DNA from: Rozella allomycis CSF55
Taxonomy: Eukaryota
NCBI GenBank assembly: GCA_000442015.1
Contig: KE561209.1
Coordinates: forward strand, 62,001-126,000
Direction: 5' to 3'
DNA length: 64,000 nt
Part shown: positions 11,180-61,137 of the stretch, piece after piece
Position numbering within the stretch: the stretch's first letter is position 1
How the letters are laid out: the number at the start of each line of letters is the position of its first letter
Translations under genes and position numbers: made by a program
Notes under the pieces: model-generated
The model's input: only the letters and a program-made list of their open reading frames with translations
What the model was told of the DNA's origin: nothing
The model's database searches: none

Positions 11180-11459
11180 CGATGAAAAATATCCGGAAAT
11201 TTACAATTGATAAACTGTCCAAAACGTGTTTGTCTTTTACTTTATGATGCCGTGACACCAATAATGATTACGATAAATGATAAAATTAATATTATCTTGA
11301 AATTATCTCAATTGAATTTATTGAAATACTCTCCTCACTAAATTTAATCCCAATGTCAGGTTAAAAATAGAAAAATGATCACGTCATTTAGTCAAGATGA
11401 ATTTTGGTGGCGCGTGTGAACAAAAATTAACGTCATCTTAAACTTTATTATTTTCGAAA

Positions 11460-11639
11460 ATGGATATCCTTCGTGCAGTTTCATTAAAACAAAGCACTCC
11501 TCATGCTACCAATAACCACACTCATGTTTCTAATGCGAATCTAGTTAAACAAGACCTACACGTCGACACAATGGAAGACTCGGTTTGCAGTATTGCTTTT
11601 CACAGAATTAATGACTTGATTCACAAGAAAAAGATATAA
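11460..11639 (+). CDS. Putative 59-aa small ORF (MDILRAVSLKQ...HKKKI)
   Basis: AAAATG start context, open 59 codons in an AT-rich intergenic gap; no recognisable motif. Confidence 0.3.
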   Translation: MDILRAVSLKQSTPHATNNHTHVSNANLVKQDLHVDTMEDSVCSIAFHRINDLIHKKKI

Positions 11640-11799
11640 ACAAATGGTTACGATGTTTTTTAGTTGTTTTTATGTTTTTTCAAAGGTTTTCATGAAAAGG
11701 ATTGTGTAATAGATTTAGTTCAAGATCAAACCTCAAAAATTCAAACCTAAATATGAAAACAATACAAAATTCAAAGTTTATTGAAAGCTACTCTTTACT

Positions 11800-17352: not shown

Positions 17353-17417
17353 ATTGATATCTGATTGGTTAAATTTAAGATTTTATTGAGCCCCTTGCCT
17401 TAGTAACCCGGGTTCCA

Positions 17418-21056: not shown

Positions 21057-22019
21057 TTAAACCTCATTTATTAATTCATTGAAAAAAGCATTAATTCTGT
21101 TAGATAATTTTGATACTACTAAATTAACAGTGGTTTCTAGCGCAAAAAATACACAACTTACAAGTACAAACGACAAGCTCGTATTTCTTACTGGAAGTTT
21201 TAAAAACGAGTCTTTCATTCGATATATGACATAAATTTCTATTGGAGCCATCATTAATTGCACGCCCAGACAGAATAAATGTTGCCTAAATTCGCCCTTG
21301 ACGTTTTTCAACTTTGATGTCAATGTTTGATCAATGATGTGCGAGAATAAAAAAGTGGGAAAGAGCAATGATTGCAAAGAAGTAAGTTTCCATTGCCAAG
21401 AAAATGATTCACCGAATAGGCGTTTTTGGAAAGAATTGAATAGAAAAGGATACTGAAGAGAAAAAGAAACCCTATATCTGTAGAAACTTTAGTCTACTTG
21501 TCAATTATAAAGTCTACTTGATCCATTTTCCTTTGTTCGACCATTATATCAAGCGGTATCTGAGATCGCAGTAAAGATTTACTTATAATCATGGCAAAAT
21601 CTGCCATTAATGATAATCCCAATCCGCTATATATGCTGTTATGGAACATTGAGATGTTTGCCATAGTGAAGCTAAAACGAGTAAATTACTTGATAACGAT
21701 GTCTCAATGTCATCAAGGGATAGCAAATCGCGATTCGGATCGTTGATTTTACAAGAGCAGAGAGACCATCCGCTATTATACCCAATTCAAACTAACAATT
21801 TTTTTAGAGTTATTTACAGATCTTTCTTCATGAAGATCATCAACGCTTGAATTCAAAACATTGTTTGTCTCTAATAAAGAATTCCGGACAATATCTGTTG
21901 CTGACTGAAGCATGTCATCGGAGCCATGGATTTCAAAGTGAAGTGTAATTAGTTGTTTTACTAGACTTTGAGAAAGAATTATGGGTAAACTCTGGAATCT
22001 GTAATAAGCGTGTACTCAT
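21057..22019 (-). CDS. Degenerate mitochondrial-carrier-fold protein (SLC25A46/Ugo1/MTCH-like)
   Basis: Spliced translation gives three Px[DE]xx[RK]-like motifs (YPLMTLRHRYQ, YPFLFNSFQKR, APIEIYVIYRM) plus SIYSGLG. It requires 4 tiny introns, one ending in TG. Confidence 0.5.
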
Positions 22020-25077: not shown

Positions 25078-25382
25078 GCCGCAGAACACGTGCACGTCAT
25101 GGACACTATAATCAGAATTAATTAAGCAAACGCCATTTTCTTAATTTTAAAAATACAAAAAATAATTAATGATTAATGAATGAACACAAAATTTAAATAA
25201 GATTGAATCTGATCTATTACATTAATTGTTTTTACAACAGTACTTCAATTTTAAAAAAAATAAAATATAAACGTATTTATTTAAAAACATAATAAGACCA
25301 TATTCACATTTAAAGATAGACCAACTCAACTCTATTTGTGTCGCCGGTGGCTTAACCAATAATACCCCTGCAGTTTAAAAAA

Positions 25383-27032
25383 ATGGATGGGCTTTCAGTT
25401 TTGAGTTCATTTATATCTATATCAATTCAAGAAAAAATAAATGGAAATAGCAGCCGCTATAAAGTGCTTTTGCGTCAACTTGGCCAAGATGTATCAGAAG
25501 GTGATTCTGTTACGCTGGCACGATGGTTCCAAGCCTTGACATATTCCGTATCTAGTTTATCGCAAGAGTGTCACGAGGTTGTTAATTTAGTAGTTAGTGT
25601 TAATCCGAGTGTATGCTATGATGATTATTTTGATTTTGTTGAGAATTTGGTGTCAGCGCATCCATATTACGCTGTTCCGTGTGTATCTAATTTGGTTGGA
25701 ATGATGAAGAGTGATGTTGAGAATTTGCATGATATTATTGCAGCGATTGTGGAGATTGTGCCTATGAGTGCGAGTCATTTGCTGAAGAATGTGAATAAAA
25801 AGTTTCCATTTAACAAGGAAGATAAGCAAGTTCAGATGAATTATTTTGGGAATGTGTTCAAGTTGATGGGATATGTGCCTGTTTTGAGAAATTCGTTGAT
25901 GGAGATTGTGGTGACTAAATTGTTACAGATTGATGTTGAGATTCAAGTGGAGATTGATGAATTAGATGAAGAAGAATTAGAAAAGGTCCAAGAAGCAGTT
26001 TTGAAGGGAGGTGATGAACAAGATGAAGTTGATGAAGGGGATGAAGATGAAGATGAAAAACAAATAGAGAAAAGAAATGAGATTGTTGAGAAAGAGATAG
26101 ATTCAGATAGTGATGAGGAAGTTGATGATGAGGATGATGAAGATGAAGTGGAAGAACAAATAAGCGACATTAAAGCTAGCATTGAAACATTGGATAGTTT
26201 AATGAAATTAACGTTTGAGAATGTTAAAGAAATAATGGAGAAAGAAGAAGATAAAGAAATGTTTTTAGTTTTCATGTCAATCTTTGAAAAGACAATTTTG
26301 AGAACATTTAATTCAAGATATGTTCAATTTATATTCTTTTATGTGACTAGTTTAGATTCTAAATACCATGATATATTTCTAGGAATGTTAATGTCTAAAT
26401 TGTTTAATAATAGATCTGTAATTTTGTGTGATCCAATAAGAATATCATGTGCTGGATATATTGGTAGTTTTATTGCCAGGGGATTATTTTTATCCGATAA
26501 ATTAATTAGCAAGTGTTTTTCAATGTTGATTTCTTGGGCTGTCCAATACGTAGACAACGTTCAAGACGTAAATAAGATTGAAGATCACTCTCTATTCTAT
26601 TGTATTGTTCAAGCGTTGTTGTATATATTTTGTTTTAGATATGAACTACTAATGAATGAAACTAATAAAGAATTGCTAGAAAAAGTTCTGTTTTCATCTC
26701 TAGAACCTTTGCTTGTTTGTGTTGAAAGCGTCACAGAAGAATTTATAGACGTTTGCTCTCATCTAAACTTCATTTTCTGTAGACATCTAGTAGAAAAGAA
26801 AGAAAGAAGCCATTTATCAATTCTAGATTCATTCTTTCCTTTTGATCCTTACAAGCTAAAAGAATCAAGTCTCTTTCTTGACCCGCTAAACATTTACAAG
26901 GAATATACATCTATTAATGATGAAGTTGAACAAGAAGATAATACTATTTATGACTCTCCTTCACAAGAATCTACCTCTAGCATTACCAATCATCTGAATT
27001 CATTATGGCAACAAAATATTACTGTAAATTAA
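25383..27032 (+). CDS. RRN3: RNA polymerase I initiation factor RRN3/TIF-IA
   Basis: KLLQIDVEIQ plus acidic loop, FNSRYVQFIFFY, YIGSFIARG, QALLYIFCFR, FFPFDPYKL. Confidence 0.95.
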   Translation: MDGLSVLSSFISISIQEKINGNSSRYKVLLRQLGQDVSEGDSVTLARWFQALTYSVSSLSQECHEVVNLVVSVNPSVCYDDYFDFVENLVSAHPYYAVPCVSNLVGMMKSDVENLHDIIAAIVEIVPMSASHLLKNVNKKFPFNKEDKQVQMNYFGNVFKLMGYVPVLRNSLMEIVVTKLLQIDVEIQVEIDELDEEELEKVQEAVLKGGDEQDEVDEGDEDEDEKQIEKRNEIVEKEIDSDSDEEVDDEDDEDEVEEQISDIKASIETLDSLMKLTFENVKEIMEKEEDKEMFLVFMSIFEKTILRTFNSRYVQFIFFYVTSLDSKYHDIFLGMLMSKLFNNRSVILCDPIRISCAGYIGSFIARGLFLSDKLISKCFSMLISWAVQYVDNVQDVNKIEDHSLFYCIVQALLYIFCFRYELLMNETNKELLEKVLFSSLEPLLVCVESVTEEFIDVCSHLNFIFCRHLVEKKERSHLSILDSFFPFDPYKLKESSLFLDPLNIYKEYTSINDEVEQEDNTIYDSPSQESTSSITNHLNSLWQQNITVN

Positions 27033-27531: not shown

Positions 27532-27976
27532 ATTTTTGACAAAATATGTAACCCCGGTCCAGATGGTGATGAGATGGAGCAATTATTGATGAGATAAAAC
27601 TAGATTCCACAACACTAAAAATTGATAATAATTCAATAATGTCTTTATTTAAGTCTCTTCAAATTCAATTGTAACTATTCATCAACTAGTTTTAGCATGA
27701 TTTAATTTGACTAATTTTTTTAAGAATTCAGGTCTAAAGTTTGTCCGGTGTGATGAAAGATCATTGCAATTAGCAGCGGAGGTACCACTGTGCTCGTAGA
27801 TTTAACAATAGAGCAACAGTCAAATACCGGCATCTCGATTCTCGGGTATTAATTTTTAATTTGGGAATATTTTCTGTACTCGTTCAACAAATTGTGGGGT
27901 TACTGGATTTGGTGACGATAAGAGATCATCTAAGCTAAGCCGCACTTGACTCTGTTCGGGGATAGACCCTGGCAAG

Positions 27977-28897: not shown

Positions 28898-31492
28898 ATC
28901 ATTAGTTACGGAAAACGTTTTTTTACGACGACTTAAACTTCGTAAACTATTGTTCATAATCACGATTATGTTCGCTTGATACTACATTTAAAGATTTAAG
29001 CAGTTGACCACTCTGTATGTCTATTATACCAATATCATGTAAATGAAATCTGCGTTTTTTAAGAAAGTTTCAAATTGTCACTCATCTATATTGTAGTACA
29101 TTTTATAGACTCATCAAAACAGGTCCCACAAAAGTGTGGTGTTATATTGGTTAACAAACAAATCTTATGAGCAACACTGAGGATATAATAGGTGCGCATA
29201 TTTGCATCCATTGGACACCGTCGATTCTGATCACGACGGGGACCTTTCGACCAACAAGAAGTAGCGGTCGCCCTTAAAGCGTCGATACGTATAGCCAAAC
29301 ATAAGACAGAACTAGCTCGTTGCCACTCCATCTTTCTATTTTCGTTATTTCTCTACCAATAACTTTACCCCTTTCCCTTTTATCTCCGATTCCATTGTCT
29401 TCCAAGTTAATTATTTCGTTTTACTTTTCATTATTTGTTGAATAGAATTTGCCAATACAAATTTACCCTTTCATTTTCGTTCAAAAAGATCCGCTGCATT
29501 AGTTGTTTCTCAAATTTTAGAATATCAAAATTTTCAGTTTTAGTTTCATCTAATTCAGAATGAAAAAATAAGTATTATGGAATGTAACCATTATCAATAA
29601 TCAAAGACAATGGGTTAATGAAGAACCCGAACATTTAATCTAGTTTCCCCTATAAGCTAAGTCATTTTCTCTGGTCACATCTATTATTGCTAATTGAATA
29701 ATTCTGTCTATTCCCTCATTTTCGATCTTATTCTTAAGTCATTCCATGTTTCCGAATTTTCTGGGGTTTTCAGGTTGAGGCAAGGTTTGACTNTTTATTT
29801 TATTTCAAGGGTTGTATTTATACCCGATGATGATCATGAGTTTTTGCCTACCCACCACAAGCATTTTCCACAAGTCAGAAACAACCTCGCTGCGCTCCAT
29901 ATCGACAAACGAGCTCTTGTACGCATTGGGAGCTATTAAACAGCCAAAAGGGACCGTCAACCATAGCTGGTATACTATTAATAGTGCTTTACGATATTAG
30001 ATTTTAGTTTAATTATAATATTTTTTATTGTTGGTAGAAGCAAAGCCGCCAAGTCAACAAATGAGACTTGCTAGTTGGAGATTTCTGCTTGCAAAAGGCA
30101 ATCGATTTGGGCTCAAAAAATATAGATACTATTCCAGAGAATATCAAAATGCCGAAACGAAAAAGAATGGTTACTTCATTGGAACATAATTAACCTTGAA
30201 AAAGTAATTTTATCACAGTCACACTTGTGGGATTTGCGATCTGGGTTTAATCGAATATGCAATTCTTAATTCAATATCATTACAGTAAAACAATAAACAA
30301 ATTATATACCTAAAACTAGGCCCTAGGTGTATTTAAAGTTGGCACTGATTTTAAAAAAATTGTTTGCTTCAAAACTTAGAGATGTTTCTTCCATGTGTGA
30401 ACATGCTGTCGTAGAACATGGTACTGATGAGTTAAATAATATGAAAAACCTTAATATTAACAATAATTTTGATTTTGAGTACCCCGGTAGATCCAGAGGA
30501 TCAATATGGACCTCTTGTAGAAAATTTTTACTGTTCCTGAAAATTCCCTTTTAATTTTAAATAAATTTACTTACCCTGGTCAAAAAAAGACATTATCCTT
30601 TATCAATGTCAGTCTACACTTCACAACACATGCTGCATGTGGTTCCTTTGGGCAAAAATATATAAAATTACCCTATCAATGTGGGTCTTGTGGGTTTGGG
30701 CGGGTCCATTTAAACGGAAGGAAAATATTTATTAACGATATAATATGCATGTCATATCTCTAATTTTATCACAGTTGAATTTGCTGAATTCGCGTTTCTA
30801 CATGCGGGTTTGTCGAGCATAGAGTAAAAATAAAACTCTTTATAATTAAATAAAATGAAAAATATTTTTGATTACATCAAGAAGAATCCTATAAAATTAT
30901 CTCAAAAGGCAATATGAACTCCTTTATCCGAGAACATTCCTAAAAGCGCAGATAATTTTATTACAAACAATAAGCCAAACTTTAGACACCGTAAAACTAA
31001 TACTAGAAACAGGACCAAAAAGACGCGCAATTATATATTGAGAATATATTTGAAGACTATCATGAAAGATAAATAAAATTAAAAAAGATTGTAAAAAGGT
31101 ATGCGTCCCACCTTCAAAACTCTTAAGAACGCAAATATCGTATGCAAGCCAGAAGGAAGCTCCCGGTAGTCCCGCAAAGAAAAAGATAACAACAACATTC
31201 TACAGTGAATTTCATAAAGAAATAATCGTCATGACACTGAAGACTGTAAAGCTCGTCATAGCTACTCTTCTTGCTACCTATTTAATATTTTGAAATTCGT
31301 CATCACAATCGGACTTGTGGGTTTGAAGCCTTTTTCTGAAGGTTAGAGAACGGAAAATACGCATGATCTTGTTACAAATTACAAATACGCTAGAAAGAAA
31401 GCCTCTTTATAAAAAGTATATGAAAATATATATGATTAACGCAATGACTTTAGATTAAAATACTAATTTATTAAATAATTGATTAAATATGA

Positions 31493-37400: not shown

Positions 37401-40400
37401 CTTTGACATACATAAATATTCATTAATTTATATTTATTAATCAATTCATCATTCATTGTATTAAATGATTTAAGATTATCTTTTTTGCTTTTAGTTTCAT
37501 GACAAGTTTTAACAAGTAATTGAGTTGTTTCTTTACCAGTTTTATTCTTGAATGCCCCATTGAATAACAATTCAGTTGAATTTAATAAATCTGAATCAAA
37601 CATTTCATACATTTTCTGAATTAATTGAAAACAAATTCCTTTTAATCCCATTTCTTCTATTAAGTCTTGATTCAAATCATTTTTATTTTTATTTGTGACA
37701 TTTTCAATTATATAATTTATATTTTCAGAATAAAAAGAAGAAAGATTGTTTTTATTGCTTGAAGAGATGCAAGGGATTAATAGTAGATCAAAGACAGATA
37801 ATCTTAAATCAATTTCATGAGATTCATCTTTGATGACTTTAAACGTGATTGATAAAATATTGTTAGATTTGTTGAATGATTCAATAACGTTATTCATTTT
37901 ATCTCTTAAAGGATGATTCTTTTCTCTTGAAAATAATGGAATCATTAATTGGAATAAATCTACACTTGAACTTGATGAAACTAGATTTAATAAATTATTA
38001 ATAATTGAAATGTATTCTTCAAATTCAACAGAATCCTTTTTCAAATCAAATGAATTTAAAGATAATTTATAAACAATTAAATGAGAAAGTGAATTTAAAA
38101 CTGTTTTTGAATTTAATTTAATTAATAAATTTGCTAATGGGAATGAAATAAATCTATTTAAAGACNTGAAACTATTTAATGACTTTTTAATGATTGAATC
38201 AAAATATTCTTCAAAATAACTTTTCAATTCTTCAATTTTATTTGGATTTAATTCAACAAGATAATTTATAAATTCCAATTGCATCTCTAAACTAGATGAT
38301 TTAATAAANNNNNNNNNNNNNNNNNNNNNNNNNNNNNNNNNNNNNNNNNNNNAAAACACAAAAGTTTAAAACATTCAAAACATAAAATGACGCTTTAAAT
38401 TTGGTAAAACAAATAAAAAGTAATTTATCAATGTTTAAATAATCTAAATTTACAAAATCATTTTCTATTAAAATTTCAACCATTTTTTGTTCATCCAATT
38501 CAAATCCAAGTTTAATTAAAACATCAAAATTAATTAAATCTTTCCTTTTCATTTCAATAAATTTAAAAATAATTTCTTTATCAATTTGAATTAAATTTAA
38601 TCTATTTAAAATAATGTAAGAATTAAATAAATGTCTTGAATAAAACAAATCCATTGATTCTTCAATTAAAACAAAATTTTCTTTAATAATTTCATTCCAT
38701 TTTATTAAATTTATTGAATTTGAAATTTCATTAATCATTTTCATTAAATCTTTATTAATTTCTTGATATTTCAAATCAAATCCAAAATGACAGGGGTTAA
38801 ATAATAAAATAGAAAATAATTCACCCAATCTTTTATCATTAATCCATTTATTATAAATATTCTCATCTTTTAACATTGAAATTGAAAAGATAAACAATTT
38901 AATCAATAAAATACTTGAATCTTTATTAAACTGAATTGTTTCACTTTTAAAATATTTAAATAATTCATTAAAATTTAAATGCTTTGAATAAATTTCATCA
39001 AAATCTGTAATTGACATTAAATTTGAATCTATCAACCAACTAGAATATTCCAACACAGAAACATTATAATTAATCCAATCTCGGTTATTATCATTTACAT
39101 CATATTCAATGGATGGTGGTAAAATACCTATTAAATCATAATTCTCTTTAATAACACTCTTTGGATTCTGTAATGATTGTCTTGAATAATCATAATACAA
39201 TTCCATACAAATTCTTGAATAAATTCTCTCCCTTTTCAATGATTGAGAAAATAACCAATTCAACAATTCATTCAAATCTTTAAATCTTCTTCTACTCTCA
39301 TTCAAAGTATTAAACAATTCCTTTTTTGTTTTAATAATTCTAGTCAAATGATTTATAGCTTCTCTTGTAACTTTAACTGGAAATTGATCATTTTCAGACA
39401 TTCTAATAGAAATTAATAAATGTTCCAACAATTCAAATGTAAATTCATCAACTAATTCTTCTTGTTCTCTAAATAGTTTATAAATCTTATTCACACAAAT
39501 AGCTCCACCAAATCTTTTATAAACATTTGGATTAATCAACAAACTATAAATTCTCTTCAAAAGTGATTTTATATTAATCTTCTCACTAGATTGTTTAATA
39601 GAGTACTTTAAAAACTCTAAAATACATTCACCCCCAAATTCATTCAACGCTGTATTATCATTGGAACAAACTGAATCCAAACAACACTCAAGCAACAGAA
39701 TCGTTTCAACATTTTCATAGTTTGCATTCCTTGTAAATAAATGAATCAATTGAAATGTCAGTGGTTTAAACAATTGAACTGCTATTGGTTCAACATCAAC
39801 TGATAACTTTAATACAATAGGAAATATTCTTTTAAATATTTTACTAAATGAATTCTAAATCTAAACTAAATTAATTAAACTTACATTATCTTTAATTCCA
39901 TTCACATGCTTTCCAATAATAAAGATAATCAAAGCTTGAAGAAACTCACATGAAGCAACTTTAATTCTTCTCTGTGAAGATTCAAGCGCTAGTTTCACAA
40001 CCCTTGGAATAAAATCATCAAATATTAAATCTATATTGAAATCTTTAACTGGAAGTTTATATTTCAATCTACTTTCATTATCCCATGCAATTAAATTCTC
40101 AACATTAAAGTTATTCAACAAACTAATATTACAGCCTCCCAAACTACCAATAAACTTTATTATTCTTTCTTGCAATAATTCAACATCAACGCTTTCAATG
40201 TTTTCAATCTTCTCTTTAACATTTCCCACTGCATTAATCTCTTCCTTTTCAATTTTAATTAAATATGGATTAAACAAGTACAAAAACTCAGAAATTATAT
40301 TCTTCAATTCTTCCTTTTTGTTTGCCCATAAATCTTCCAATGTATCCATTGTAATTACAACCAGTGGTTTAAATGTCAATCCAATCTTTAATGCCAGTTG

Positions 40401-42604
40401 AAACGCTTCTGTTAACTCTTCAACTTTAATCAAATTCATTTTACAGCCAAAAAATAACAAATATAAACACGCACAAAGTAATTCATTCTTGTAATGTTTA
40501 ATCTTCAACTTTAATTCATTCAAAAACACTTTGATTAATTCAATCACATCTTTATTAACACTTTCAAATTGAATATCTTTAATAATCAAACTCAATATTT
40601 TATAATAACCAACAATTTCAAAGTTATCTTCAATCTTATTAATAAGAAATGTAACAAGTGCAAAATACCAATGATTTATTCTCAATGTTTTAACATTTGT
40701 AAAGAAGAGTAATAAAAATCTAACAAGATTATTAAAAATTATAAAATCTTTTGAAACTTTTAAATCTAATAAACTTATCAATTGCATAGAAGATTCAATA
40801 ATCTCATCATAAAAAATATCATTAAAATCATTTTCAACTTGAAAAATACTTTTAAAAATATAAATGTAATCTTCATAAGCATTAACTGAAATATCTTCAT
40901 AAACACTATTTGGTTCAATTTCATTACAACAACAAGTTAAACAATACAACACTCTATTTCACATTTACATTATCTTACTTGTCTTTTTCAAAAACAATTT
41001 CAATTGCTTCTTTTCAAACAACATCTTTAACAATCCTTGATACGAATAAATAACTGAATTTCTATTCCACTTTTGGATCCTCGGATAATTACAAAATAAA
41101 TATTTCGCAAAGTTATAAACTTGCTCCATAAATTTCTCATTTAAAACTTCAAACTCTTTGCCAATCAATGTAAACGCTTGAATAATTGATCCCAATTGAC
41201 TCAGAATTTGTTCATTCTCATTACTCTTCACACTAGAAAACATCCATCCACAATGAAACAATAAACTCTCCAACATTGATTCAAGTTCCTTCACTTTAAC
41301 AAATCTCTTACAAACACACGCAAAATACCCATAGCCTCTAATCCCCATCGCCAATGTTTTAATATTTCCTTGTCCATTCTTCATCAAATCTGAAAACTTT
41401 TCAATAAAAAACTTTTCAAAATATTTATGCTTATTTACCCAAAAACAATCTCTTCCAATCAAATCATCGCTCTTTTCACAAATCATTTTGGGAATCTCTT
41501 TCAAAAATGACTCCATTGCTTTCAATCCCAACTTTTCAATATCTTTGTTATTATGTTGACTCGTTTCCAAAAGTAATCCATAACAATTCCTATAATCTTT
41601 GACTAGAAACTCTTCAAATAAATTCACAATATTCATAAACAAACTCAGCGATTCTTCATCACAATAAATTANTCAAGGATTCTTCATCACAATAAATTGT
41701 TTCAATTACCTCTACATACATCGTATCTTTTCAAATTCTCTGGCGGCTTCATTGTCGCTTTAACACACAAATACAGCTTTTTAACCAAATCATTCACACC
41801 TTTCACAAACAATCTTTAAATTTACTCTCAATAAATCTACTTGACTCTTTCACTTTTAAAAATTCATTCATCCCTTTCAATGCTCCAGCCAACAACATCA
41901 ATTCAGTCTTTTTCTTTGTCTCAAACACCTCAAAGTAAACCACTTGCATAGCCATTTTCACAAACTGCACAATCTTCTTTTCATCCTTGATATGCTGGAA
42001 ATGTATCCCAACAATAGTCCCCAACAAACACAATATCGCGCCTTTCACAGCAGGCCGCAAATTCGTTTGCTGTCTCACATACTCCAACACAAATCTCTCA
42101 AACAATGCATTCACACCCAACCTCTCCTCAACACTACCATCCTCTCTTCTCATCACCAACAATGTTTGCACAAGATCCAACGCCGCCTTTTTCACCTTGG
42201 AATCTTTGTCCACCGTAAACAAGTACACACTCAGATCCTATCACACATCCACATTCCTCATACCTTTAAAAGAATATCATATTCACTTCCTACAAACTTT
42301 TCATGCTCAACCAACACGTACTGCAATACCTCCAGCAATACACCTCGGGTTGCCGCATCGTCGTTCTGCGCGACACTCTTCCTGATATATTCCAATATAC
42401 CTTTTTGATTGTCAAACATTAAAACTATCATCATTTCTGAAAATTACAGCAGATCTATTTACTAATGTCCTTTTCTTCGATTATATCAACTTGGACCATA
42501 TGACTTATTTCAGCAGCTACTAGCTTTGTATCGTTCTCTGTATACAGAGACTGGATACGATCGGATAATATTTGAATCGCACTTTCGCTTGATATTAAAA
42601 CCAT
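31493..42604 (-). CDS. PRKDC: DNA-dependent protein kinase catalytic subunit, about 14 tiny introns, two N gaps
   Basis: FATC DIAADPNILARSWTGWQAWI*, kinase GIGDRHLDNF / GIDFGHAFGSATQ / KTGEDLRLDQR, RSYRTGELPDIQIKHSELLIPLQ, RRIKVASCEFL, FREQEELVDEF. Confidence 0.95.
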
Positions 42605-45864: not shown

Positions 45865-47140
45865 ACAGACTTCATGTTTCATAAATATATAGAGTTGTTG
45901 TTAATTTTAATTTTGCACGAAAGATCCCCATGTGAACACTGAATTCCAACATGTTTCATGTTTCTAACCAAGAAATATGGAATTGAATAACACGTGATTT
46001 NCCTCATTCTTTTCAAACCTGAGAGGCTGAGCAACCTCATCACATGTGACGGTATTATTGGCATTTGAAACATTTCACTTTTTTAGTGACTAACAATATT
46101 TTGAATAGAAAGGAATTACGAAAGCGATTTTTTCAAAGTTCTTGCAAAATATGAATTGGACTGCAGTGAGCACGGGTCAGGAATCAAATATATCAAATTT
46201 TATGATGTTGTTATGAATTACGTTTAAAACTATTGTTTATTGATTTCATATCTCACTTCATATTTAAAGAACAATTTCTATACATTCCAGATTGCGCTAG
46301 ATGCTANTGGCTTCTGCTAGAACTTTGCCGGAGATCTTATAGAGAATGATTTTATGTTCGAGTGATTGTCTTACAAATCATTTACAGAATAAATAAGGTC
46401 TAATTTCTAANAAATGTTGCTGTCATCAAACTTTATGTAACCATCATAAGATCCGGTATGTTTATTGTAGGTTAAACTAAGATCCGAATTATTCAATCCT
46501 CCCACAGACCCTGAGAAAAATATGAAATTTTTATTGCTAGTGAAAATGTGATTCCTTTTCATAAACAGAGCGTACTTCTCTGGGTTACTTTGTTATAGAT
46601 ATTAACATTTGAATGTACTTATCAGTATTTTTCATAGTCAAATCAGCTGTCCATTTATCTAAAGTTTGTTCATTTGGAGCAGTAATTTGTATGTTCAAGT
46701 GTCTTGGTTCCATTTCATTGATTTCATCATTTGAATCAAATTTATATTTTCTTACTTAATACACCAGGCGATGCGGTCGTGACATACACAAATATGACAA
46801 AGATCAGAAAGACAGAAAACATAATTGTTGATGTTTACCTCGATCTATTCCAACAAACTTTTGATGCCTAGTCTATTCCATAATGCTGAACTAAAAATGT
46901 TTGTGAATAGTTCGTGAATAAAATAACAATCATTTTAGTGAGTTCCTTTTCGTGCAAAGAGTAAGGAGCAAAGCCACGCCCACCTTGGCCTTCCGCAACC
47001 GAGACGGCCTAAAGGAAAGGTATGGCTTAATCTCCATATCTGGTCTTGTCTCGCACAATGACATCATATAGATGTTTGGTTGATGCGACCGGAACCCTCT
47101 CGTAAATAAATTTTCATTTCATTTCAAAGCCACGCCCACG

Positions 47141-47600: not shown

Positions 47601-48189
47601 TGTCGTACCAGGGATTCTCATTCCATATTTCATAGAGGGATTCTCATAGTCATCCCACACATCTTAGAATAATTATCAAAGAGAGGAGTCGACATCATTT
47701 GCTTGTGATTATTGAGCTCTAAATCCTACTTTACAGCATGNGTTTTCATTCAATCCTTCAAATGCCTTCACTATAGCGCAACCATTGGGCACGGCGTGAA
47801 ATTCTTAAGAAGATTTTTAGAAGGTTCCGTAAAAATTTCAGCCTCANAAGCCTCGAGATGAAATGCACCACCACAATCAAATAGTCGCGCCTTAGAGTAT
47901 CTCAGGAGATTGTGTTCAGACAGTCCGTTTGCTAAAACCAAAATACAGCTTGTTTGTCTCTCGAAGCTTCGTATAATTTATTATAGCTTATTAGCTCGGC
48001 CATAACTAATTGAAGAGGAAGATAATGGCCATGATGAGCAACTGCTGAAAATCGGGGATTTTTGGTGCATGTGGACTGTNTTCTTTGAGAGTTGTGACTC
48101 CTCTCTTTAATAATTATTATAAGAAGGGTGGGATGAGAATCCCTCTATGAATTGGTATGAGAATTCCTGGTACGACATTACCCCCTTCC
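47601..48189. mobile_element. Two inverted copies of an LTR-like terminus (47601-47690 +, 48096-48177 -); the minus copy is preceded by a polypurine tract
   Basis: Both start TGTCGTACCAGG(G/A)ATTCTCAT and align to ...AAAGAGAGGAGTC. GGAAGGGGGTAA lies immediately 5' of the minus copy. Confidence 0.6.
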
Positions 48190-49207: not shown

Positions 49208-51107
49208 TTAGTATCGGTATCCAATCTCGTCCCAAAATTCACATGATCTTCTCTTCCAATGGGACTCAGAATGAATGGGAAAAGATATGTCAATGTAATG
49301 CTCGTCATCTTCTGTGTATACTGGCCATGTTACATCCGCTTCATCATCGAATTTTGTTATATTTCCATATGCAAAGGCCGCAAATTTATTGGCAAAAAAC
49401 CTTGCGAAATATCCCCGATGTTGACTTGCTAATAATCTTGAAACCTTATTAAGGTAGTTTTTAAACTTTACCCACACTGGGACTCTGCTAGCTGCCGCTG
49501 AGACCAATCGAGTGAATGGACTTAAGAAAGAATGCATAGAATTGGCATCAAAGCTAGGAAAGGTATCAAAAACATATGGAAGTTCTACTGAATGACACAC
49601 TCTGTTTTTGCTACACGGGCCTTGGAAAAATTCTATATTCTATTTTACCTATGAATATATAACCAGGAACGTGATTGAAAACATATTGGTATACTGGTAA
49701 ATTTTCTCGTGTAAACATTTTTGCAACATGCCGCGAAGAGCATGTTACTCCATAAAGAGTGGTTATTGTCATTGCGGAGTGGAAATTGGTGTTGTGGTCA
49801 TCTGTCGCGGGGTATCTTCTTAAAACCTTGTCTTGATTCAACATTGTATATTACTTGTTCTGCCTTTTCTCTAAATATTCTAGAAAGGAGCGAGATATAC
49901 ATATCTTTCGAGAACTGCTTGGAAGGAACATGATATATGAATTGGAAAAGAGATGTCACTATTTCGATTCCATGGGATTCGTCCCGCGTTGTACCAATTA
50001 TCAACGGCACTTTTTCAAATTTCCCTTGTTCTATTAATTCCATCGCGGAACCGAATATGTTCTCATAATCAATAGTAGGTGTCCACTATTCAATGTTTAA
50101 AATCTATGGTACCAGAAGTATGTTATTTATGGAGTCTACCTGATCTGTCAAAAGTCCTTGCTTGGATAGCAAACCTAATGTTGACACTTTCTGTAAACAA
50201 GAAGTCCTCGTTTTAATGTCAGAACATCCTAATTCTATATTTTAAATGTAATATTCATTTACTCTCGGCAAATTTGACCCCATTTCTAATAGCCTCATCT
50301 TTTTCTTTAGATAGTGATGTAATTGGCGCGCTCATCAATATAGCTTTTGAGCAAAGACCGTGACTAGCTCGTGAGGTCAAATGTAACTATTCCATCAAGC
50401 AAAAAAATACATTACTGCTATTGACCATGCGCCAGCGGATTGACCGTAGCACGTTATTTGATTAGGATCACCCCCAAAAAATTCGATATTTTCTTTCACC
50501 CACTGCATTGCCATTCTTTGATCTTGAATAGCGTAATTTCCTTTCAATTCTTCCGTAGTTAAAAAGCCAAAAACCCCAACCCTGTAATTAAATGTTACGA
50601 CAATCACATTCTGTTTTGAAACAGTTGGTGTACCATCATATAGTCCATAGATATTCCCACCGCCCATAACAAAGGCGCCTATTCCCCGTAAATGAATATA
50701 ATACCTCCGAAAAACCAAAGTAGCACAGGAAGACTTTGGTTTTGTCTTGGATAGGCAGGCGCGTAAACATTCAAATATAAGCAGTTTTCAGAGTACAATG
50801 TGAACGACAATTGTGGACAAACATAGCTGTACTTTTGAGTGGGACGTATTCCTTCCCAGGGGGCTTTAGGAATGGGTGCCTGAAAACGCCTACTTTCAAT
50901 TGGAGGCTCAGCAAATGGTACTCTTGATTACATAGAAAAAGAAAAGAGGTACCCTAGAAATTGCCTAGTAAGACCATTTGGCGACAATTTCCCTTTCACC
51001 GCACCATATTTTGTGTTTACGACGAGGCCTTCAGTGTTATTAAAGCTACCCGTCGGTACACAACTAAAAAGCGGTAAGGTCAATTGTATCACCAATGAGA
51101 TCTTCAT
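49208..51107 (-). CDS. Secreted type-B carboxylesterase, about 7 introns
   Basis: Signal peptide, FLGVPFAEPP, SENCLYLNVY, GQSAG nucleophile, GTTRDE, CHSVELPYVF. Confidence 0.92.
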
Positions 51108-52714: not shown

Positions 52715-53665
52715 ATGGCTATTATATTTGTTTTATACTCACATAAATGGTTCGGACCACTAAAGCAGCAATCATCAATGAGATCATTAATTGAATCATT
52801 GCAGCTGGATGCAACGAAAGATTATAGTATTAAGTGTCTTAAAAACAACTTCGTTTTGAAGGATAAAAACTTGGTGCTTCCTTCAGGATCTTATGAGTTA
52901 TTTGAAAGTAACATTGACTCATCTATGAAATTGGACTTGGTTTTTCCAAAGGAAATTACAAATTTTGAATCTAATACACAACTCTTAGTCGCAATACGTT
53001 TTGGACTTAGCTTGCTAGATAAATTATCCTTACAATTATCTGCTGCAAACACAAAATTTGCCAAAAAGGTATTACATGGCAATTTTGAACCAAATCTTAG
53101 AGAAATCAGAGTTAGAAAAACGTTAATTACATTGCTGGAAGAAATAGTGATTTTGATTTCGAATTCCATCAATACAGAAGACCCAGAGTACTGCAAAATT
53201 ATACATGTATTATTGTGTTATCAAAGCTATTTAGAGGGAACTATAACCATTAAGAATGCATTTTATCATGTGACAAGAGGTAATATGGTAATTCCACAAA
53301 AAACATTTAATGATCATCAAAATACCATTAACAAGCTGTCGCAGAAAATTGAAAGTATGAACTTGACCCATGCATTACAGAAGAATCCGAAAACATATAT
53401 GAAATCGAGAGTCGTTAAATTTGACTATGAATATGTAGCATGTTCACCATATCGACCTGTTGATCCAAGGGTCGCTGTTGGTTCGATGAAGAATAGATTG
53501 CTTGATGCAATGATTGATTCTAAATTAACTACAGATAGTGATATTTTGATATTAATTGAGTCTTGCATAAAAATGGAAGAAGCTATGTATTCGCCATACG
53601 GAATATATCCAACAACGTTTGTAAGGGAATCTATGATTAAAGATTTTGCGATACGAACCTACTAA
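52715..53665 (+). CDS. Hypothetical intronless protein (316 aa)
   Basis: Long ORF with ATG and stop; no recognisable motif. Confidence 0.6.
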   Translation: MAIIFVLYSHKWFGPLKQQSSMRSLIESLQLDATKDYSIKCLKNNFVLKDKNLVLPSGSYELFESNIDSSMKLDLVFPKEITNFESNTQLLVAIRFGLSLLDKLSLQLSAANTKFAKKVLHGNFEPNLREIRVRKTLITLLEEIVILISNSINTEDPEYCKIIHVLLCYQSYLEGTITIKNAFYHVTRGNMVIPQKTFNDHQNTINKLSQKIESMNLTHALQKNPKTYMKSRVVKFDYEYVACSPYRPVDPRVAVGSMKNRLLDAMIDSKLTTDSDILILIESCIKMEEAMYSPYGIYPTTFVRESMIKDFAIRTY

Positions 53666-54168
53666 ATGTGATTTCACTAATAAATTATAAAAATAAATGC
53701 CTTCATTTCCTCATTTCCTCAATCATTATGACTTTCGCAAATGTTATTTCTAATTTTCATCCTCAATACGGGATTCTCTTTTTGAACTACTAAAACAGAA
53801 GATTTTTGCGAGTCCAAATGCTTAAAGTCGGCTTCTAAACTACGCGAATTTTTCACATGAAGTCGATATGCCTGAAAGCTTCACATTCTATGAAGTTAGT
53901 TTCATTTCTTTTTATGTGTATGTCTATAAAGCCCACTTTTCAGAATAAGAATATGGTCTTCCCACATCTGAAGTTCCTCATCAGAAAACAGGCGTCTTCG
54001 AGGACTTAATTTCATTGATGTGGCTCAACGAAACATAATTCGGGCAAATCTTCACAGGATGCGAATAATCAGTGCTCAAAATAATTACTAAAAGCCAAAA
54101 AGTTGCACTAACAAACGACAATCGATTGAACATGTTTTTATTAATAAATTATCTAAAGAACCAAAAAA

Positions 54169-55374
54169 TCAATACTTTCGTTTCTTCAAAGGCACCATAA
54201 CTTTTTCTTGTACTTCTGAATTGTTATCATCTTCTTCAATCTCCGCTGTATCGGTTTCCTCTTCTTCCTGCTTGAAAAATGACACCAACTGATCTATTTG
54301 CTCTCCTGCCAACATTTGATCTTGAGGAATCGAAATGAGCATTTCAGTTATAGGCGATGGCGTAACGCGCCTTGAAATTGATCGACGACTTCTTCCTTCG
54401 CGCTTTGGCGTGTCAGACGATTCAAAGTTGTCTTGCAAAATTTTTCCACTTTTCCATTTCATGCCACAAGAATTGCAGAGTGTAGATTTGCCTGGTTGAA
54501 GAACAAGAGAATAGTTACCGTTGGGCCCTTTTCTCCATAGCGGGGTAGATCTGCAACCACAATAATTGCATTGTCTTTGGCCTCTATAAGAATTTATCGC
54601 ATCACTGCCATTAATTTCTTTGCTTGGAGTTTCAATGGTTTCTTTTGTTTCTACGTTTGCAGTATCAACCTCCAGTTTCTGCTTTGGCTAATTGAAGGTA
54701 GGCTGAAAATTTACCTTTTTACCGCTGCTGACCTTTTTATAAGAAGTTTTTTGACCAAACAATAAAAATTGCATCAACAATATTCACAACAATTGAATAA
54801 CTTACTTCTTTAATTGATGGTGGAAATTCACATTGTATTGAGAGATCATCTTGATTGCGAGGCGTGACATTTGTCAGTAGACCCAGAAAGCTGTTAGCAG
54901 GGACTAATTGCTCCAGATTAGTAAACAGAGCCTATTTCATGAGTAAATTTGAAGAGTTACTTGGTCGATATTTTTCATGCAGACTGTCAATTTTTCGTTT
55001 CTATGTTTGATGGTCAATTGCGCTTGGAATGGAGCCTAATATGATGCAAAGTCGAATATTACATTAAAGTTTGTTTTCTGTATAGCTATTAAATCTGGAA
55101 TTTTAAACAAGGTAGGGTTTGATGGGTATTGAAAAGCGATAATTTTATCGATGATGTAAACTTGTATATTGTTGAAGATATGAGGGCCAATAATTATAGT
55201 GATTGTAGAGTGTGATTTTTCTGGAACAGAAATGTTCAGAATATCAAAATAGTCTGTCAGTAGGGACTGTCGAGATTGAGCCAGTTTTAAAAAGAAAAAA
55301 CCACTAGAACTAATAATCACTAAAATTTTAAGATACTTGTTATATGAAGAATTCAAGTAATTAGAGTTTGTCAT
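54169..55374 (-). CDS. GATA zinc-finger protein (C-x2-C-x18-C-x2-C), about 6 introns
   Basis: CNYCGCRSTPLWRKGPNG|KSTLCNSCGMKW; C-terminal PLKKRKY NLS. The upstream exons join in frame. Confidence 0.8.
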
Positions 55375-55481
55375 AGAAAAGAAGAAAATGAAAGACAAGA
55401 AATTTCAGAAAACAAGAACATTCATTTATTGTGTAATGAAGAACAAAAACTGGTATGAGATAAATAAAATGCATTTGAATT

Positions 55482-57289
55482 TTAAGAGAAGGAATCTGAA
55501 TCGATTGAAAGAGACGAAGGAAATTTCCTTTTTAGAGGTTGTTGATTTAAGGGTCTTGGAGCATGACTGGGACGGGACATGGAAGAAACTGTGGGTCTAC
55601 CAACAGAATTCTTTTGATTTGAAGAAAGATTAGAGAAAAAGGAAGAATAATCGATTGGCGGTTTTTTTAAATTCTTTGTTACATGCAGGTAATGATGATT
55701 ATAATTTGAAATGTTTGAATTATTTAGTTTTGAAAGATCATCGCCTGTTAAGAAGAACAAGGCTCGTTTTTCATAGCTAGGAAAAATAATAAAGAAAGAA
55801 AATTACAAAGAAGGAATCTGATAAGGAATTTTCTGATTTGAATTGAAGCCCAAAATTTCTTCATTTTCATTATCAGGTTCATCAATCCAAACTCTACCAT
55901 TCCTTCCTAATCTGTATCTAGCGTTTGGTAAAATAGTTTCTGAAATTTTAACATCTTTTGAATAAAACAAAGAAGAAAGTTTTGGTTTGAAATTGATGAA
56001 AGGAAGCTATTATTAGCAGGGGTTATTGTTACTTCAGAAGTGTCATTGAAATCTTCATCTAATCTTCGTTTCTTCATTAATTCTTTATCAATGACAGACA
56101 TTAAATTCTGAGTCATTGCGATTGAATTTGAATCAATTCCTTTGACTGTTGAAGGTGCTGTATTTGTTTTTGGTGTTTGAAGTGCCTTTTCTTTCCTTGT
56201 AGAAATTCTCATTCCTCTATTTGACTCATCTGCGTATCTCAATCTTTTTATCGTCTTTTAAGTTCTATTGAATTTATTTACTTTTGGTTTCTTTTCAAAT
56301 ATTGGTCTTAAATGAGCAATCGCTTCTAACTCTTGCGGAGAAACTTTCTTTTTTAAATTGTCAACTAGAAGACTTTGTTCAAAAATTAATGATTCCAGCA
56401 TCAATGATTCTTTCTTAAATTTGTCTCTCTTGCAAACCATTTCCAAAAGAGTCTTTGCTGTTTCTAAATCTGTTCGAAGTTTCTTCAATTTCTCCAAAGA
56501 TTGTGAATCGCTTCTTCTTGTTTTCCTTTGAATTTTAATTTCTCTTCTTCTAAAACAAACATAAGGATCAGCGTAAGACTTTTGACCTTCATCAAGCTAA
56601 TCTAAACACTTAAATCTCTTCATACTTTTGTTGAATAAATTAATCCTTTTCCAACTCTATTTCTTTTTTCTTTCCAATATTCAAAAACTTTATCGCCAAA
56701 ATTCTTTATTCCTTCCTCCATCATTGGAATTTCCATTAGCATCTCCAAATCTTTCATATTGACACCTTCAACACTCTATTTCAATCATCATTTCAATTTA
56801 CTCTCTCATTTGATGCCTTTTCAAACTGGTTCATCATCATCTCAAACGCATCTTCAGATAACACAATCTTTCCATCTTTATTAATTTTATTCAACCAGTT
56901 TTCATCATCATCATCCATATCATACGGAATACTCACACAGTCCTCTATAAGCGTATTAAACCGCACAAGGGTCTTTGGCTGCTTATACACACCCCTGTAC
57001 AAGATATCATAATTCGCAATCTTTGTTGGCTTAGATGGCGTTGGAATATACACTGGCCCCGAATTAATCTGCGCCGACGCTAATGCTTGTTGCAAATGAT
57101 GCTCCTATCATCCCAAAATTCCAATATTTCTACCTCCTCCTCATCCTTATCAACTCCTGTCGGAATCAACGGCAACGCCCTGCTTATACTGGCGGATTCA
57201 TCAAGGTCAGGCACATCATAATAGCAAAATGCAGGTAGCGCTTTGTAAATATCGATTTTTCGCGAACGGAATTTTGGTTTGCGTTCCAT
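55482..57289 (-). CDS. EPL1: Enhancer of polycomb (NuA4 subunit), 6 introns
   Basis: FRSRKID, PTGVDKDEEEEHHLQ, YDMDDDDENWL, DPYVCFRRRE, RYRLGRNGRVWID. Confidence 0.92.
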
Positions 57290-57612
57290 ACTGTGTTAAA
57301 CTCTAAAATATCGCTCAAAACTCATTTTTATACTTTTTTGCTTGAATTTGACTAGTCGTGTATACAACGACCCTATTTACAAGGGTTTTCGGACTTACGA
57401 AATTTCGTAATTGGCATATTGTCGCTCGGCTCGTGATTTGTGTTGATACAGCGATAGATTTTTGAAATCTTTAGCATTATAAGAAAAGAAATTTTGAATC
57501 ATTTTACTCGAGACATTCGTAAGTCCTATGGAGACCCGTGATTGTTGTAATAGCAAATGATATATATCAAAAATGCGATAGAAAATATTAAAAATGTTTA
57601 TTATTGTGAATT

Positions 57613-60132
57613 TCACAACACTTCATATTCTTCATCTGATTGTGTAATATTCGCAGGTTTTATTACACTGGCATCAACGATTGGTCTGATTGCAAACAAG
57701 TTTAATTCCTTAATTTTCGCCCACTAATATTATTACTCTAGACATTTCTATGAAACCAAGTAGATCACTTGAATAAATGAGAAAGCCTAATAACATTGAT
57801 GGATCAAGCTCACTAACATGAATAGACTTTATTGACTGGCAGTGATAGGAAGGGCATGGGTAGGTTAATATCTCTTCAAAATTCTGTGAAATATGAGGAT
57901 CCAAGTACAAAACGTTTTGTCCTTTTGCTGCTGGAAAGTAAAAGGATCTCATCGGTTTTCCACCAACTATTCCCAAAAAGCACTTGTAATGAAACAGTGT
58001 CTTATTTCAAATATGGAGACATTTGTACTAACAATTTATCAAAGTACGACTCGTCCAATTTCTCTAGTCCAAGGCGAAGGGGTACCAACACAAATGCACA
58101 ATGGTCGCCTGCCAAACTATTTTTGATTTGTTCCACGTCTATCGCACAATCCACAGCGACATGCACCTTTACGGGATTGTTGCTCCATCTGTCAGACAAG
58201 TTTCACTTTAAGAATAAAATAATTGTTACCTAATTGAATGAGCGAGAACTGATGGGCTAAACCACTGACCAGGTCTTGTATTAAGCTTAGCGCCTTCTTT
58301 AACAATGTTATGAATTGAAAACAGAGATGTTGCTTCATCGTGAATCAATTTCAAGATGAATAAGTATTGCTTTGCAATATGCATATCGAATGATTTAATA
58401 AAGTTATCTGGATAATGAAGCTAATGTAAAGTACTGGATAGCATTATGCGTTTGTAGCACTCTGCGATCATTGATTGTCCTGATCGAATCATGCAGCCCC
58501 AACCGACATCTGATGTAAAAAAGTGGTGAATCAAGGGCATATTTGTTCGATAAGTTGCGTAAAACAATGAACTCCAAGCAATTTGAAAGTTTTCAGCTGC
58601 GTTGTTTATCACAGTCATACTTTCTTTAGGTTTGGTTTCGAAACAATTATTAATCAACCTTGGTAAAGATGGTAAGGATTTGTCGCTATTATAAATATGC
58701 AGCTGAGTTTTGATAAGATCAAAGTTTCTCTTCGACGATGCATGGAAAATTATGCAATCGCTCAAAGTACTTATAGCTATCTTGAAGCATTCTCGCAAAT
58801 TGAACGATATTTCTTTTATATTTTGAAACTCGACAACTTGATGGCCAATTTTTATGCTACGCTTGTCAATCACCAAATAGCATTTATGCCAACACAATTG
58901 ATTATAGTTCCATACATATATTTCAAAATCTTCGTGTTCTCTTTTATTTACAATGTACATTTTTGTGAAATTGAAATCTTCTGCGTGCATAAACCTACAA
59001 TTGAATTCGGTTTCCAACAAGTGAATCAGTCTGTCAATTAATTCTTCAGTAATTGCAATGCAGTGTTGATGTTTTAAGCAATAATACAGTGGATCATCGT
59101 ATCCATTCTTGATAATTTGTACTTTTATAGTGAGATGTTCTTCAGTGTAAGAGATTGATATAATCCGATGTACGGCTTCATCAAAAGACTCGGCAAATAT
59201 TGAAAATGGCTTTATAAAATTTAGCTTAAAATTTCTAATTCTTAGATATCTGCTAATATTATTGAATAAAGATTTCAATGAACTATTCCTACATTGCAGT
59301 ACACAAATCTTGCCCGCTATACAATTCTGACTAAACGCTGATCCAAAACGTTCATAATTCATGTTTAAGCATACTCCTTCAACATTTAAATCAAAAGAAT
59401 CAGAATAATTGCGGCCAAACATAAAAATGTTATTCATAGAGTCTTTGGCTACTTCATGGCCTTGATAAGATGGTTTGAGGGCCTGAACAAAAGTACCAAT
59501 TCCAGAGTTGAATATCCAGTGTCTAATAAAATTTTTGATATTGGTTACCCTAATTTTATATAGATTGGAAGCTCTTCAGATAAATCTTGATCAACCATAC
59601 TTGTCAAATCAACATTACTGGTCTTTGAATCCAATTTGTCAATATTCCTTGAGGTTAGTGATTGGGCAGACATTGTTCGTCTGAGTTTTGAATCCTTTGG
59701 TGGTCTATTTTCCAATAAAAACTCCAATTGAAGAACTATTTGCCCACATTCCTTTATTATTTTTAAACACGAGTTTAAACAATTGGATGAAACTGGAATC
59801 ATATTTCTGTGTATCTGGCTGGATTCAATGAAACAATTGTGATGAGTTTTATCAATGGAAATGAAATCAGTTGAAGAGTATGATGTAATATTGTATTTGG
59901 ATGTTGTAAATTCAAAGTATAAAGAGTCCATTTGGTGCTGTGTGTGAAACATGAAGCAAAATGAGGTTGCTTTAATTGGTAACTGGATAGTGTAACCTGG
60001 TTTGATAGGAACGATATATGCGGTTGAATCAAGAGAATATTTCAAAAACACATGGTCTGCCATCAAATAAGCTTTGAGGCGATTCGAGTTGAAATATATA
60101 TCAGGAAGTTTCACGTACAAAACATATAACAT
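57613..60132 (-). CDS. ATG4: ATG4 cysteine protease (C54) with N-terminal extension and inserted PH-like region, 5 introns
   Basis: TSDVGWGCMIRSGQ, FSIHN, GQWFSPS, VPLRLG, GIVGGKP, YLDPH, LDPSMLLGF, C-terminal LIR-like DEEYEVL*. Confidence 0.9.
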
Positions 60133-60205
60133 ATACTCTACTAGAAATAATATATAAATATATTTTATTCTTTAACTTTTTTATTCTTTATTTTTATTTT
60201 GTTGA

Positions 60206-61137
60206 TTAAAAGGCAAGTCTAATTACATGATCAGCTTTTCTTGCAGTGGGTTTAATGAAGCCCATAAATTGCAGTTCTGAAATAGATCTCATGAAACGAG
60301 CTAGAACGATGGATTGATCTAATTCTTCTTTGGAGCCGCTTTCGAGGATGAGGCCAAATGAAACAAACCAATCGTATAAATTGATCATTTTACCGCATTC
60401 AAGGTAGAGTTGGTAGATTATGGAAGTGTCTGGTAGAGAAGGATCTATGGTATCTTTAGAGATGGAAGGTTTGTTTAGGTAATGATTGCTATCTTTTAAA
60501 GAATTTTGAATAACAGATCTTGGCTGAGCATGAAACGCTTTACGAAGAGACTTTGCATTATCAAACAAGAATATTTCATGCAAGGGGAGAGAAGAATAAT
60601 CTTGTAGACCAAATTGGAAGATTTCTTTTAATAAATTGACGCAATTTGATTTGTTTGTTGAAGATGAATTTGATTTGAATGTTTGAAGAGAGTTTGATAA
60701 TTTTGTTGTTTCATTTTGTAATAAATCGCATTGATTGAAAATTTGAATTATTTTAGAGAAATATTCTTGAAATGAATTTTCATCTAAAAATCTTTAATGA
60801 GTACGAAGAAAATAGAATTTACTTTATGATTCTCAAGATTGAATGAAGATTTTCAATTTTATTTTCTAAACAATTTAGGAATAAAATGGATGGAGATTTT
60901 TTTAAAGATTTTGATTGAATGAAGGGATTTATTTCAATTAAAGCTAAAAAACAAAATTTGAAAATTTCCAAAAAAGAANTTTCAGTTAAAGCTAAAAAAC
61001 AAAATTTGAAAATTTCCAAAAAAGAAAATAAATTTCTGATTTGAATTTTAGCCCATTTTTTGAATTCTTGATTGTTTTGTAAAAGAATTTTCATTTGATT
61101 CAAATTTTGATCTAATTTTGAATCTACAAATCTTTTA
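60206..61137 (-). CDS. ORC3: Origin recognition complex subunit 3, C-terminal part only
   Basis: PDTSIIYQLYLECGKMINLYDWF...ARFMRSISELQFMGFIKPTARKADHV; the frame is cut at N 61138. Confidence 0.9.

Follow-up and report, generated by a model that had tools for sequence, protein, structure and literature searches.

The 64,000-nucleotide window analyzed here (Rozella allomycis CSF55, contig KE561209.1, positions 62,001 to 126,000) carries on its minus strand an ATG4 gene in which one intron, at 58204-58229, appears to end in TG instead of AG. Judging from the DNA and from the homologs of the encoded protein, we consider it probable, at roughly 70%, that this 26 nt segment is a U2-type spliceosomal intron whose transcript is cut at UG and not at AG. 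Each of the two principal readings of the site needs one oddity, which is either a UG end at modal length or an AG end lying 10 nt past the observed maximum. The fit of the protein and the structure of a second allele tip the balance toward the TG at intron position 26 over the AG at position 41.

On the minus strand, 58204-58229 reads GTAACAATTATTTTATTCTTAAAGTG, with AG before it and AAAC after it. The segment has a regular GT donor (GTAACA at 58224-58229; GTAAC begins two of the 48 curated introns of the window that are described below). Its 5' end, GTAACAAT, does not match the extended 5' consensus of U12-type introns, which is RTATCCTT. If the AG at position 24 served as the acceptor, a stop would follow after 12 codons. 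Use of the TG at position 26 joins the frames of exon 2 and exon 3, the exon 3 open reading frame (ORF) at 58002-58202 opening with NLSDRWSNNPVKVH. The next in-frame AG, at 41 nt, costs five residues (NLSDR), and another in-frame AG is present at 47 nt; no frame-keeping GT..AG pairing was found around 58204-58229 beyond these 41 nt and 47 nt options. The 15 nt that separate the TG from the 41 nt AG supply the last base of a split Arg codon, the N, L, S and D codons and the two first bases of the next Arg codon, and they close with CTGACAG. The letters and flanks of the intron, the stop behind the first AG, the frame kept by the TG and the loss of five residues at 41 nt had all been stated in a preliminary description of this DNA, and all of them were borne out on the minus strand. 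Displacing the 26 nt unit did not improve it: a shift of 1 nt would give an identical mRNA with worse ends (GG..GT), and a shift of 2 nt upstream (AG..AG) was ruled out by the stop. A canonical U2-type GT-AG intron ends in AG at its 3' side; the 26 nt unit ends in TG, and only the 41 nt reading supplies the AG.

The exon ORFs of this gene match the Pfam profile Peptidase_C54 (PF03416) in order and together cover profile positions 2-267, with positions 2-54 in the ORF at 58424-59575, 68-118 in that at 58226-58420, 127-184 in that at 58002-58202 and 185-267 in that at 57713-58006. Three of the exon ORFs scored 49.3, 42.9 and 80.9 bits, above the cut-off of 25, and exon 3 alone scored 17.9 bits, under the cut-off. 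The spliced product matches the family profile end to end, and the GWGC and DPH motifs, which carry the catalytic Cys, Asp and His of Peptidase C54, both occur in it and line up with the profile consensus. Thus, the preliminary description was right in calling this a conserved ATG4 gene, which also contains three further, ordinary GT-AG introns (27, 28 and 28 nt). The coordinates are collected in Table 1.

Table 1. Features of the ATG4 gene and other elements of the window discussed in the text
Feature	Position	Strand	Remarks
ATG4 first long exon	58435..59575	-	C54 domain start (GWGC motif) after ~320-residue N-terminal extension; Pfam match at ORF residues 328-379
ATG4 intron	58408..58434	-	27 nt, GT..AG
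ATG4 exon 2	58230..58407	-	PF03416 positions 68-118; human ATG4B residues 110-153
Intron in question	58204..58229	-	26 nt, GTAACA start, TG end; likeliest excised unit (frame, homology fit, DNA check)
AG at intron positions 23-24	58206..58207	-	Bypassed; its A (58207) is position 23, the likely branch adenosine
Disputed 15 nt	58189..58203	-	Exon if the TG at 26 is used, intron if the 41 nt AG is used
ATG4 exon 3	58029..58203	-	Start as given by the TG at 26; PF03416 positions 127-184 from ORF residue 9
ATG4 intron	58001..58028	-	28 nt, GT..AG
ATG4 exon 4	57737..58000	-	DPH motif; PF03416 positions 185-267, E 1.4e-22
ATG4 intron	57709..57736	-	28 nt, GT..AG
ATG4 last exon	57613..57708	-	TGA stop at 57613-57615
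GATA-factor candidate	54778..54805	-	28 nt, GTAAGT start, TGAAT with A at 23, TG end
TG look-alike	46728-46755		In a gene without recognizable family
TG look-alike	27671-27699		Without homology to judge by
RRN3 ORF	25356-27029		Unspliced, 558 residues; 97% identical to a partial Rozella allomycis CSF55 protein, next match 32%

To place the junction within the family, a profile was built from the 150 best of 1121 matches to exon 4, of which 83 covering the domain were kept and 67 partial ones were dropped; the window protein itself was excluded. Against this profile the 26 nt form scored 289.3 bits, the 41 nt form 276.1 bits and the 47 nt form 273.4 bits, and the junction was free of gaps for the 26 nt form only. 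In PF03416, eight profile positions lie between the matches of the two flanking exons, and only the 26 nt form provides eight exon 3 residues for them. Alignments to PDB chains of human ATG4B paired Q153 with an H close to the exon 2 end, and V169-H170 with the V-H of exon 3. The spacing from the former to the latter is 17 residues both in human ATG4B and in the 26 nt form, and 12 in the 41 nt form, so the gap-free fit to the human protein stated in the preliminary description could be reproduced. The distance between two other anchors, G-x-W and V-x-V-x-x-D, is 32 residues in the 26 nt form and in 51 of the 83 homologs; of the other homologs, P0145 has 27 and another has 29, two are truncated fragments, and all others have a longer segment. 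Two residues encoded by the disputed 15 nt recur at their positions in the family, the L in 58 of the 83 homologs and the S in 25 of them. Read to its terminal TG, the intron yields a functional frame, the top profile score and the modal spacing of the homologs.

Among the matches listed, the best were proteins of early-diverging fungi (Linnemannia, Dissophora, Lunasporangiospora, Paraphysoderma and Benniella), and the closest match to exon 4 among 1.84 billion representatives was 57% identical. The protein collections that were searched gave no ATG4 model of R. allomycis or of a close relative. The 384-residue first ORF of the gene, used as query, had no match among proteins of 211-672 residues, and two metagenome loci considered as ATG4 relatives were rejected, as they had 13-residue matches only. 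The approximately 320 residues upstream of the C54 domain are without a Pfam match. This extension is regarded as coding because the single-nucleotide polymorphisms (SNPs) within it are mostly synonymous. Very long N-terminal extensions are also seen in the best ATG4 homologs (Mortierellomycota), which are proteins of 881 to 3398 residues.

The length of the TG-ending unit was compared with that of ordinary introns of the same window. By joining long ORFs or Pfam-matched exons on the gene strands, with a filter of 24-34 nt, we curated 48 GT..AG introns, whose lengths were 26 nt (10 introns), 27 nt (12), 28 nt (15), 29 nt (5), 30 nt (4) and 31 nt (2). The ATG4 unit of 26 nt falls inside this range and 41 nt falls outside it. 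In all 48 introns the acceptor was the first AG at or past position 26, and earlier AGs were skipped, three introns having one that ends at position 24 and one intron having one that ends at 25. An A occupied position 23 from the 5' end in 32 of the 48 (binomial p ~5e-5 against 38% A), a signal exceeding that of every position counted from the 3' end. The ATG4 intron has this A as well, and its G26 lies 3 nt past A23, as in the ten 26 nt introns. A crude scan based on reading frame alone gave a similar picture, with 14, 17 and 14 candidates for AG ends at 26, 27 and 28 nt over a background of ~4. From these counts, which come from one 64-kb window, we infer a branch adenosine fixed at position 23 from the 5' splice site. 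The preliminary description had proposed that the spliceosome measures distance and accepts UG when no AG is in range. The first part is supported from the DNA by the 48 acceptors and the 26-31 nt lengths. However, an AG lies only 2 nt upstream of the ATG4 TG, so that the condition would have to be the lack of an AG within positions 26-31 and not the lack of one nearby.

At 17345-17379 on the plus strand, in an unnamed gene, a 35 nt GTCAAT..AAG segment is the sole frame-keeping GT..AG link between two long ORFs and might be an exception in length, as might the GATA-factor candidate discussed below. On the minus strand at 42238-42293, in a DNA-PKcs gene, intron-like units of 30 and 26 nt stand head to tail in different phases and would jointly form a 56 nt intron.

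To assess the DNA itself, contigs from three DNA runs (X1, X2 and X5, which carry two organism labels and are dated 2014, 2015 and 2018) were compared over positions 53001-60900. A single X2 contig with a depth of 1116 spans this region without a difference. X5 agrees where it covers the region, with a depth of ~3 at the ATG4 site. X1 contains the window sequence and also a second haplotype, which reaches roughly a third of the depth (e.g., 101.6 of 292.1). No alternative letters or indels were seen at 58204-58207 in the contigs of the three runs, in both haplotypes. The sole indel was at 57593, beyond the ATG4 stop codon, and there was none in the gene body. It should be noted that the X1 and X2 contigs are not fully independent, because either run may be the source of the window. 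Genomic AG or indel errors at the TG site, which the preliminary description had named as something to look for, were thus found neither in the three runs nor in the two haplotypes, and an assembly error at this site is very unlikely.

In the second haplotype, the site is contained in one bubble contig, which has four changes. Those at 58158 and 58173 are at synonymous third positions of exon 3 and that at 58217 is inside the ATG4 intron. The fourth, at 58189, removes the G of the 41 nt AG and keeps both the AG at 24 and the TG at 26; in the 26 nt frame it changes Arg to Ile. Across ATG4, the differences listed between the alleles comprise at least 18 purely synonymous codon changes and at least 8 amino-acid changes, counts that exclude 9 further differences within the 7.9 kb, and no stop or frameshift was present among the listed differences of the second allele. 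In the first exon, SNPs 59048, 59057 and 59090 are synonymous in its frame. With 18 synonymous versus 8 replacement changes and neither a stop nor a frameshift, the second allele looks functional, and the sequences point to purifying selection on the two ATG4 alleles. This functional-looking allele lacks the 41 nt AG and therefore has no AG between intron positions 25 and 46. Over the whole of 53001-60900, the SNPs of the second haplotype of X1 occur in clusters and for the most part affect synonymous third positions, and the depth pattern of X1 suggests either a 2:1 ratio of alleles or a mix of two strains.

The strongest competing explanation is a canonical 41 nt GT..AG intron (58189-58229) with its branch in CTGAC, 3 nt before the AG. 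ATG4 would then be five residues short, and the TG would be unused or a minor site. We regard this as unlikely, but it has substance, and several observations that favor it or otherwise weigh against a cut at the TG should be considered together. The 41 nt intron keeps the frame without a stop, has canonical dinucleotides and closes with CTGACAG, in which a good branch-like motif precedes the AG by 3 nt, an ending that resembles the yTnAy-AG of other introns of the window. One of the 83 homologs, P0145, is itself five residues shorter at the place of the 41 nt deletion. The base at -3 of the TG cut is G, which is found in 2 of the 48 curated introns. In the crude scan, TG ends at 26, 27 and 28 nt had 4, 5 and 5 candidates, which equals the background and gives no excess. 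Owing to the 24-34 nt filter on the curated set, the lack of longer introns rests on a separate look at candidates of 15-69 nt. The change at 58189 in the second haplotype alters an amino acid and by itself is no proof that the 15 nt are coding. An RNA run (X12, same species label) yielded only a low-complexity piece at 55.4-55.8 kb, with zero cover on ATG4 and no RNA junction. In human U2 introns, TG was never the sole acceptor, and mutation of AG to TG activated neighboring AGs and not the TG (Szafranski et al. 2007, PMC2374985). Finally, splice pairs other than GT-AG, GC-AG and AT-AC total 0.26% across 130 annotated fungal genomes (PMC7072748).

On the other side, none of the 48 curated introns is longer than 31 nt, a maximum that a 41 nt intron would exceed by 10 nt. 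The separate look covered every candidate of 15-69 nt whose two flanks each had 50 or more open codons, and 27 of these were at 26-31 nt; apart from the 41 nt and 47 nt options of ATG4, the longer ones inspected either were antisense or were short introns whose end had been moved to a later in-frame AG, and no other convincing intron of more than 31 nt with strong flanks was found. The 41 nt form also loses 13 bits against the family profile and drops the L kept by most homologs, and its AG is gone from the second, otherwise functional-looking haplotype. It is also conceivable that the TG at 26 and the AG at 41 are alternatives in the window's allele, a mixed picture that would be compatible with the human precedent.

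It is improbable that the site gives no productive splicing, with either a decaying gene or a message that is destroyed after a cut at the AG of position 24, and that the fit of the TG is a relic. The rest of ATG4 is intact, both the GWGC and DPH motifs are present, its three other introns are canonical, and the listed codon changes between the alleles are predominantly synonymous. Least probable of all is that the TG is a sequencing or assembly error hiding a true AG or an indel that would restore a canonical intron: the assembly is imperfect (107 N in the window, with many single-base N at 46-49 kb), but the three DNA runs and both X1 haplotypes agree at the site and the gene body is free of indels.

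If the intron does end at the TG, the following mechanism could account for it. The branch adenosine would lie at a fixed distance, at position 23 from the 5' splice site, and the 3' cut would be made 3 to 8 nt past it, in introns of 26-31 nt. The AG at positions 23-24 of the ATG4 intron may be unusable as an acceptor because its A is the presumed branch adenosine. With no other AG in the 26-31 nt window, the spliceosome would ligate after G26, such that the terminal G is retained and U replaces A at -2. The product would be a full-length, family-typical ATG4 protease. In ATG4 the RNA would accordingly be cut at the TG, A23 would be the branch point, and the TG would be the main rather than a minor site. 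Ordinary 26 nt introns of the window share with the ATG4 intron the GTAA start, A at position 23 and a cut made 3 nt past that A; the ATG4 intron differs from them in having U and not A at -2, and G and not T or A at -3.

The preliminary description regarded this mode of splicing as undescribed for the lineage. We found no paper on non-canonical splicing in Rozella, in a literature search whose scope held few subscription journals and not the original genome paper. However, TG 3' splice sites as such are already known from human U2 introns, where they occur as alternatives beside AG only (Szafranski et al. 2007, PMC2374985). Like the ATG4 intron, the human introns with tandem TG-AG sites have a GT start and a TG end near an AG, and the terminal G is kept. 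In the window's allele, AGs lie 2 nt upstream and 15 nt downstream of the ATG4 TG, both within the limit of ~28 nt given for the human sites (PMC2374985). The differences are that the human TG is always a minor or regulated alternative, whereas the ATG4 TG would give the sole family-typical protein, from a 26 nt intron and with one allele lacking the downstream AG; and that the human cases were validated by RT-PCR, whereas the ATG4 case is deduced from DNA and protein homology.

Very short introns also have parallels. Introns of Paramecium and Nyctotherus are ~25 bp (PMC5014332), introns of ~30 nt have been noted in S23 of R. allomycis, and short introns are found in microsporidia (both PMC6349667). 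These ultra-short introns resemble those of the window in that their lengths vary little and lie near the physical minimum, their interior is AT-rich and they start with a strong GTA. They differ from the ATG4 case in that non-AG acceptors are not reported in the PMC5014332 and PMC6349667 material consulted.

The preliminary description had also claimed that three of about 80 introns end in TG, the other two being in a GATA factor and in a carrier gene. Our screens of the window leave one solid case (ATG4), one ambiguous case (GATA) and one that was not located. The GATA candidate (Table 1) does contain a 28 nt GT..TG unit in frame with the next exon, and its donor at 54805 is followed by no AG for 73 nt. 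However, canonical in-frame alternatives exist, namely a 73 nt intron plus an 18 nt exon, or a single 118 nt intron, and no homology decides between them. As for the carrier, no such gene was located: the mitochondrial-carrier motif was not found in the six frames of the window, and no carrier family was detected among the 64 and 89 ORFs scanned with Pfam, in which the sole transporter was a ZIP protein at 1151-2062.

A number of other candidates were considered and rejected. The ATG of 21662-21689 is most likely a start codon. For three donors a canonical intron fits: that at 12146 (28 nt, 12101-12128), that at 20392 (29 nt, 20340-20368) and that at 50796 (26 nt, 50679-50704, which fits the carboxylesterase consensus). 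Each of the segments 40942-40968, 16726-16755, 41797-41825 and 29962-29992 has a canonical AG solution, and several other TG or non-AG candidates are antisense to annotated genes. Two look-alikes are listed in Table 1. In the intron at 3659-3688 on the plus strand, a TG at position 27 is followed by an AG at position 30; these cuts are 3 nt apart, so that frame alone cannot tell which is used. The GATA gene also has, in its zinc finger, a canonical 27 nt GT..AG intron at 54492-54518 on the minus strand. Its length is a multiple of three and it has no stop, so that a message retaining it would stay in frame and gain 9 residues between the two cysteine pairs.

A genome-wide GT-TG mode of splicing thus rests on one solid case. 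It may be that Rozella possesses a general ruler, with the branch A ~23 nt from the 5' splice site, ligation 3 to 8 nt further on and UG used constitutively when no AG is available there, and that about a percent of introns (ATG4 and possibly the GATA factor) are GT-TG introns mis-modeled by standard annotation. This broader proposal is tentative, and we consider it rather doubtful.

With regard to the window as a whole, it uses the standard genetic code and has ~34% G+C. The match of its RRN3 ORF (Table 1) points to R. allomycis or a very close relative as its source, with which the ~30 nt introns noted in R. allomycis S23 agree (PMC6349667). Rfam and tRNA scans of the window gave no matches. 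The arms of an inverted repeat, 25-41 nt in length and with a complementarity of 90-92%, lie at 47601-47690 and 48096-48177 on either side of ~400-500 nt. They are located in a gene-poor stretch with many single N, and 47601-48177 is possibly a small element with terminal inverted repeats. Two blocks, 8001-12000 and 38001-42000, have a low G+C of 21-33% and a GC skew of -0.32 to -0.53, and they fall where the Hobbit-family and DNA-PKcs genes have their long minus-strand ORFs.

If the TG acceptor of ATG4 is used as proposed, it would be a natural case of a non-AG acceptor that makes the functional mRNA of a conserved gene. Given the strict window of 26-31 nt as well, the intron would lend itself as a simple system to studies of how the site of the second splicing step is chosen by distance from the branch point, and the same system would test how dispensable the adenine at -2 is. 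Gene models that admit GT-AG introns only, in Rozella as well as in other genomes with tiny introns, would truncate or shorten such genes.

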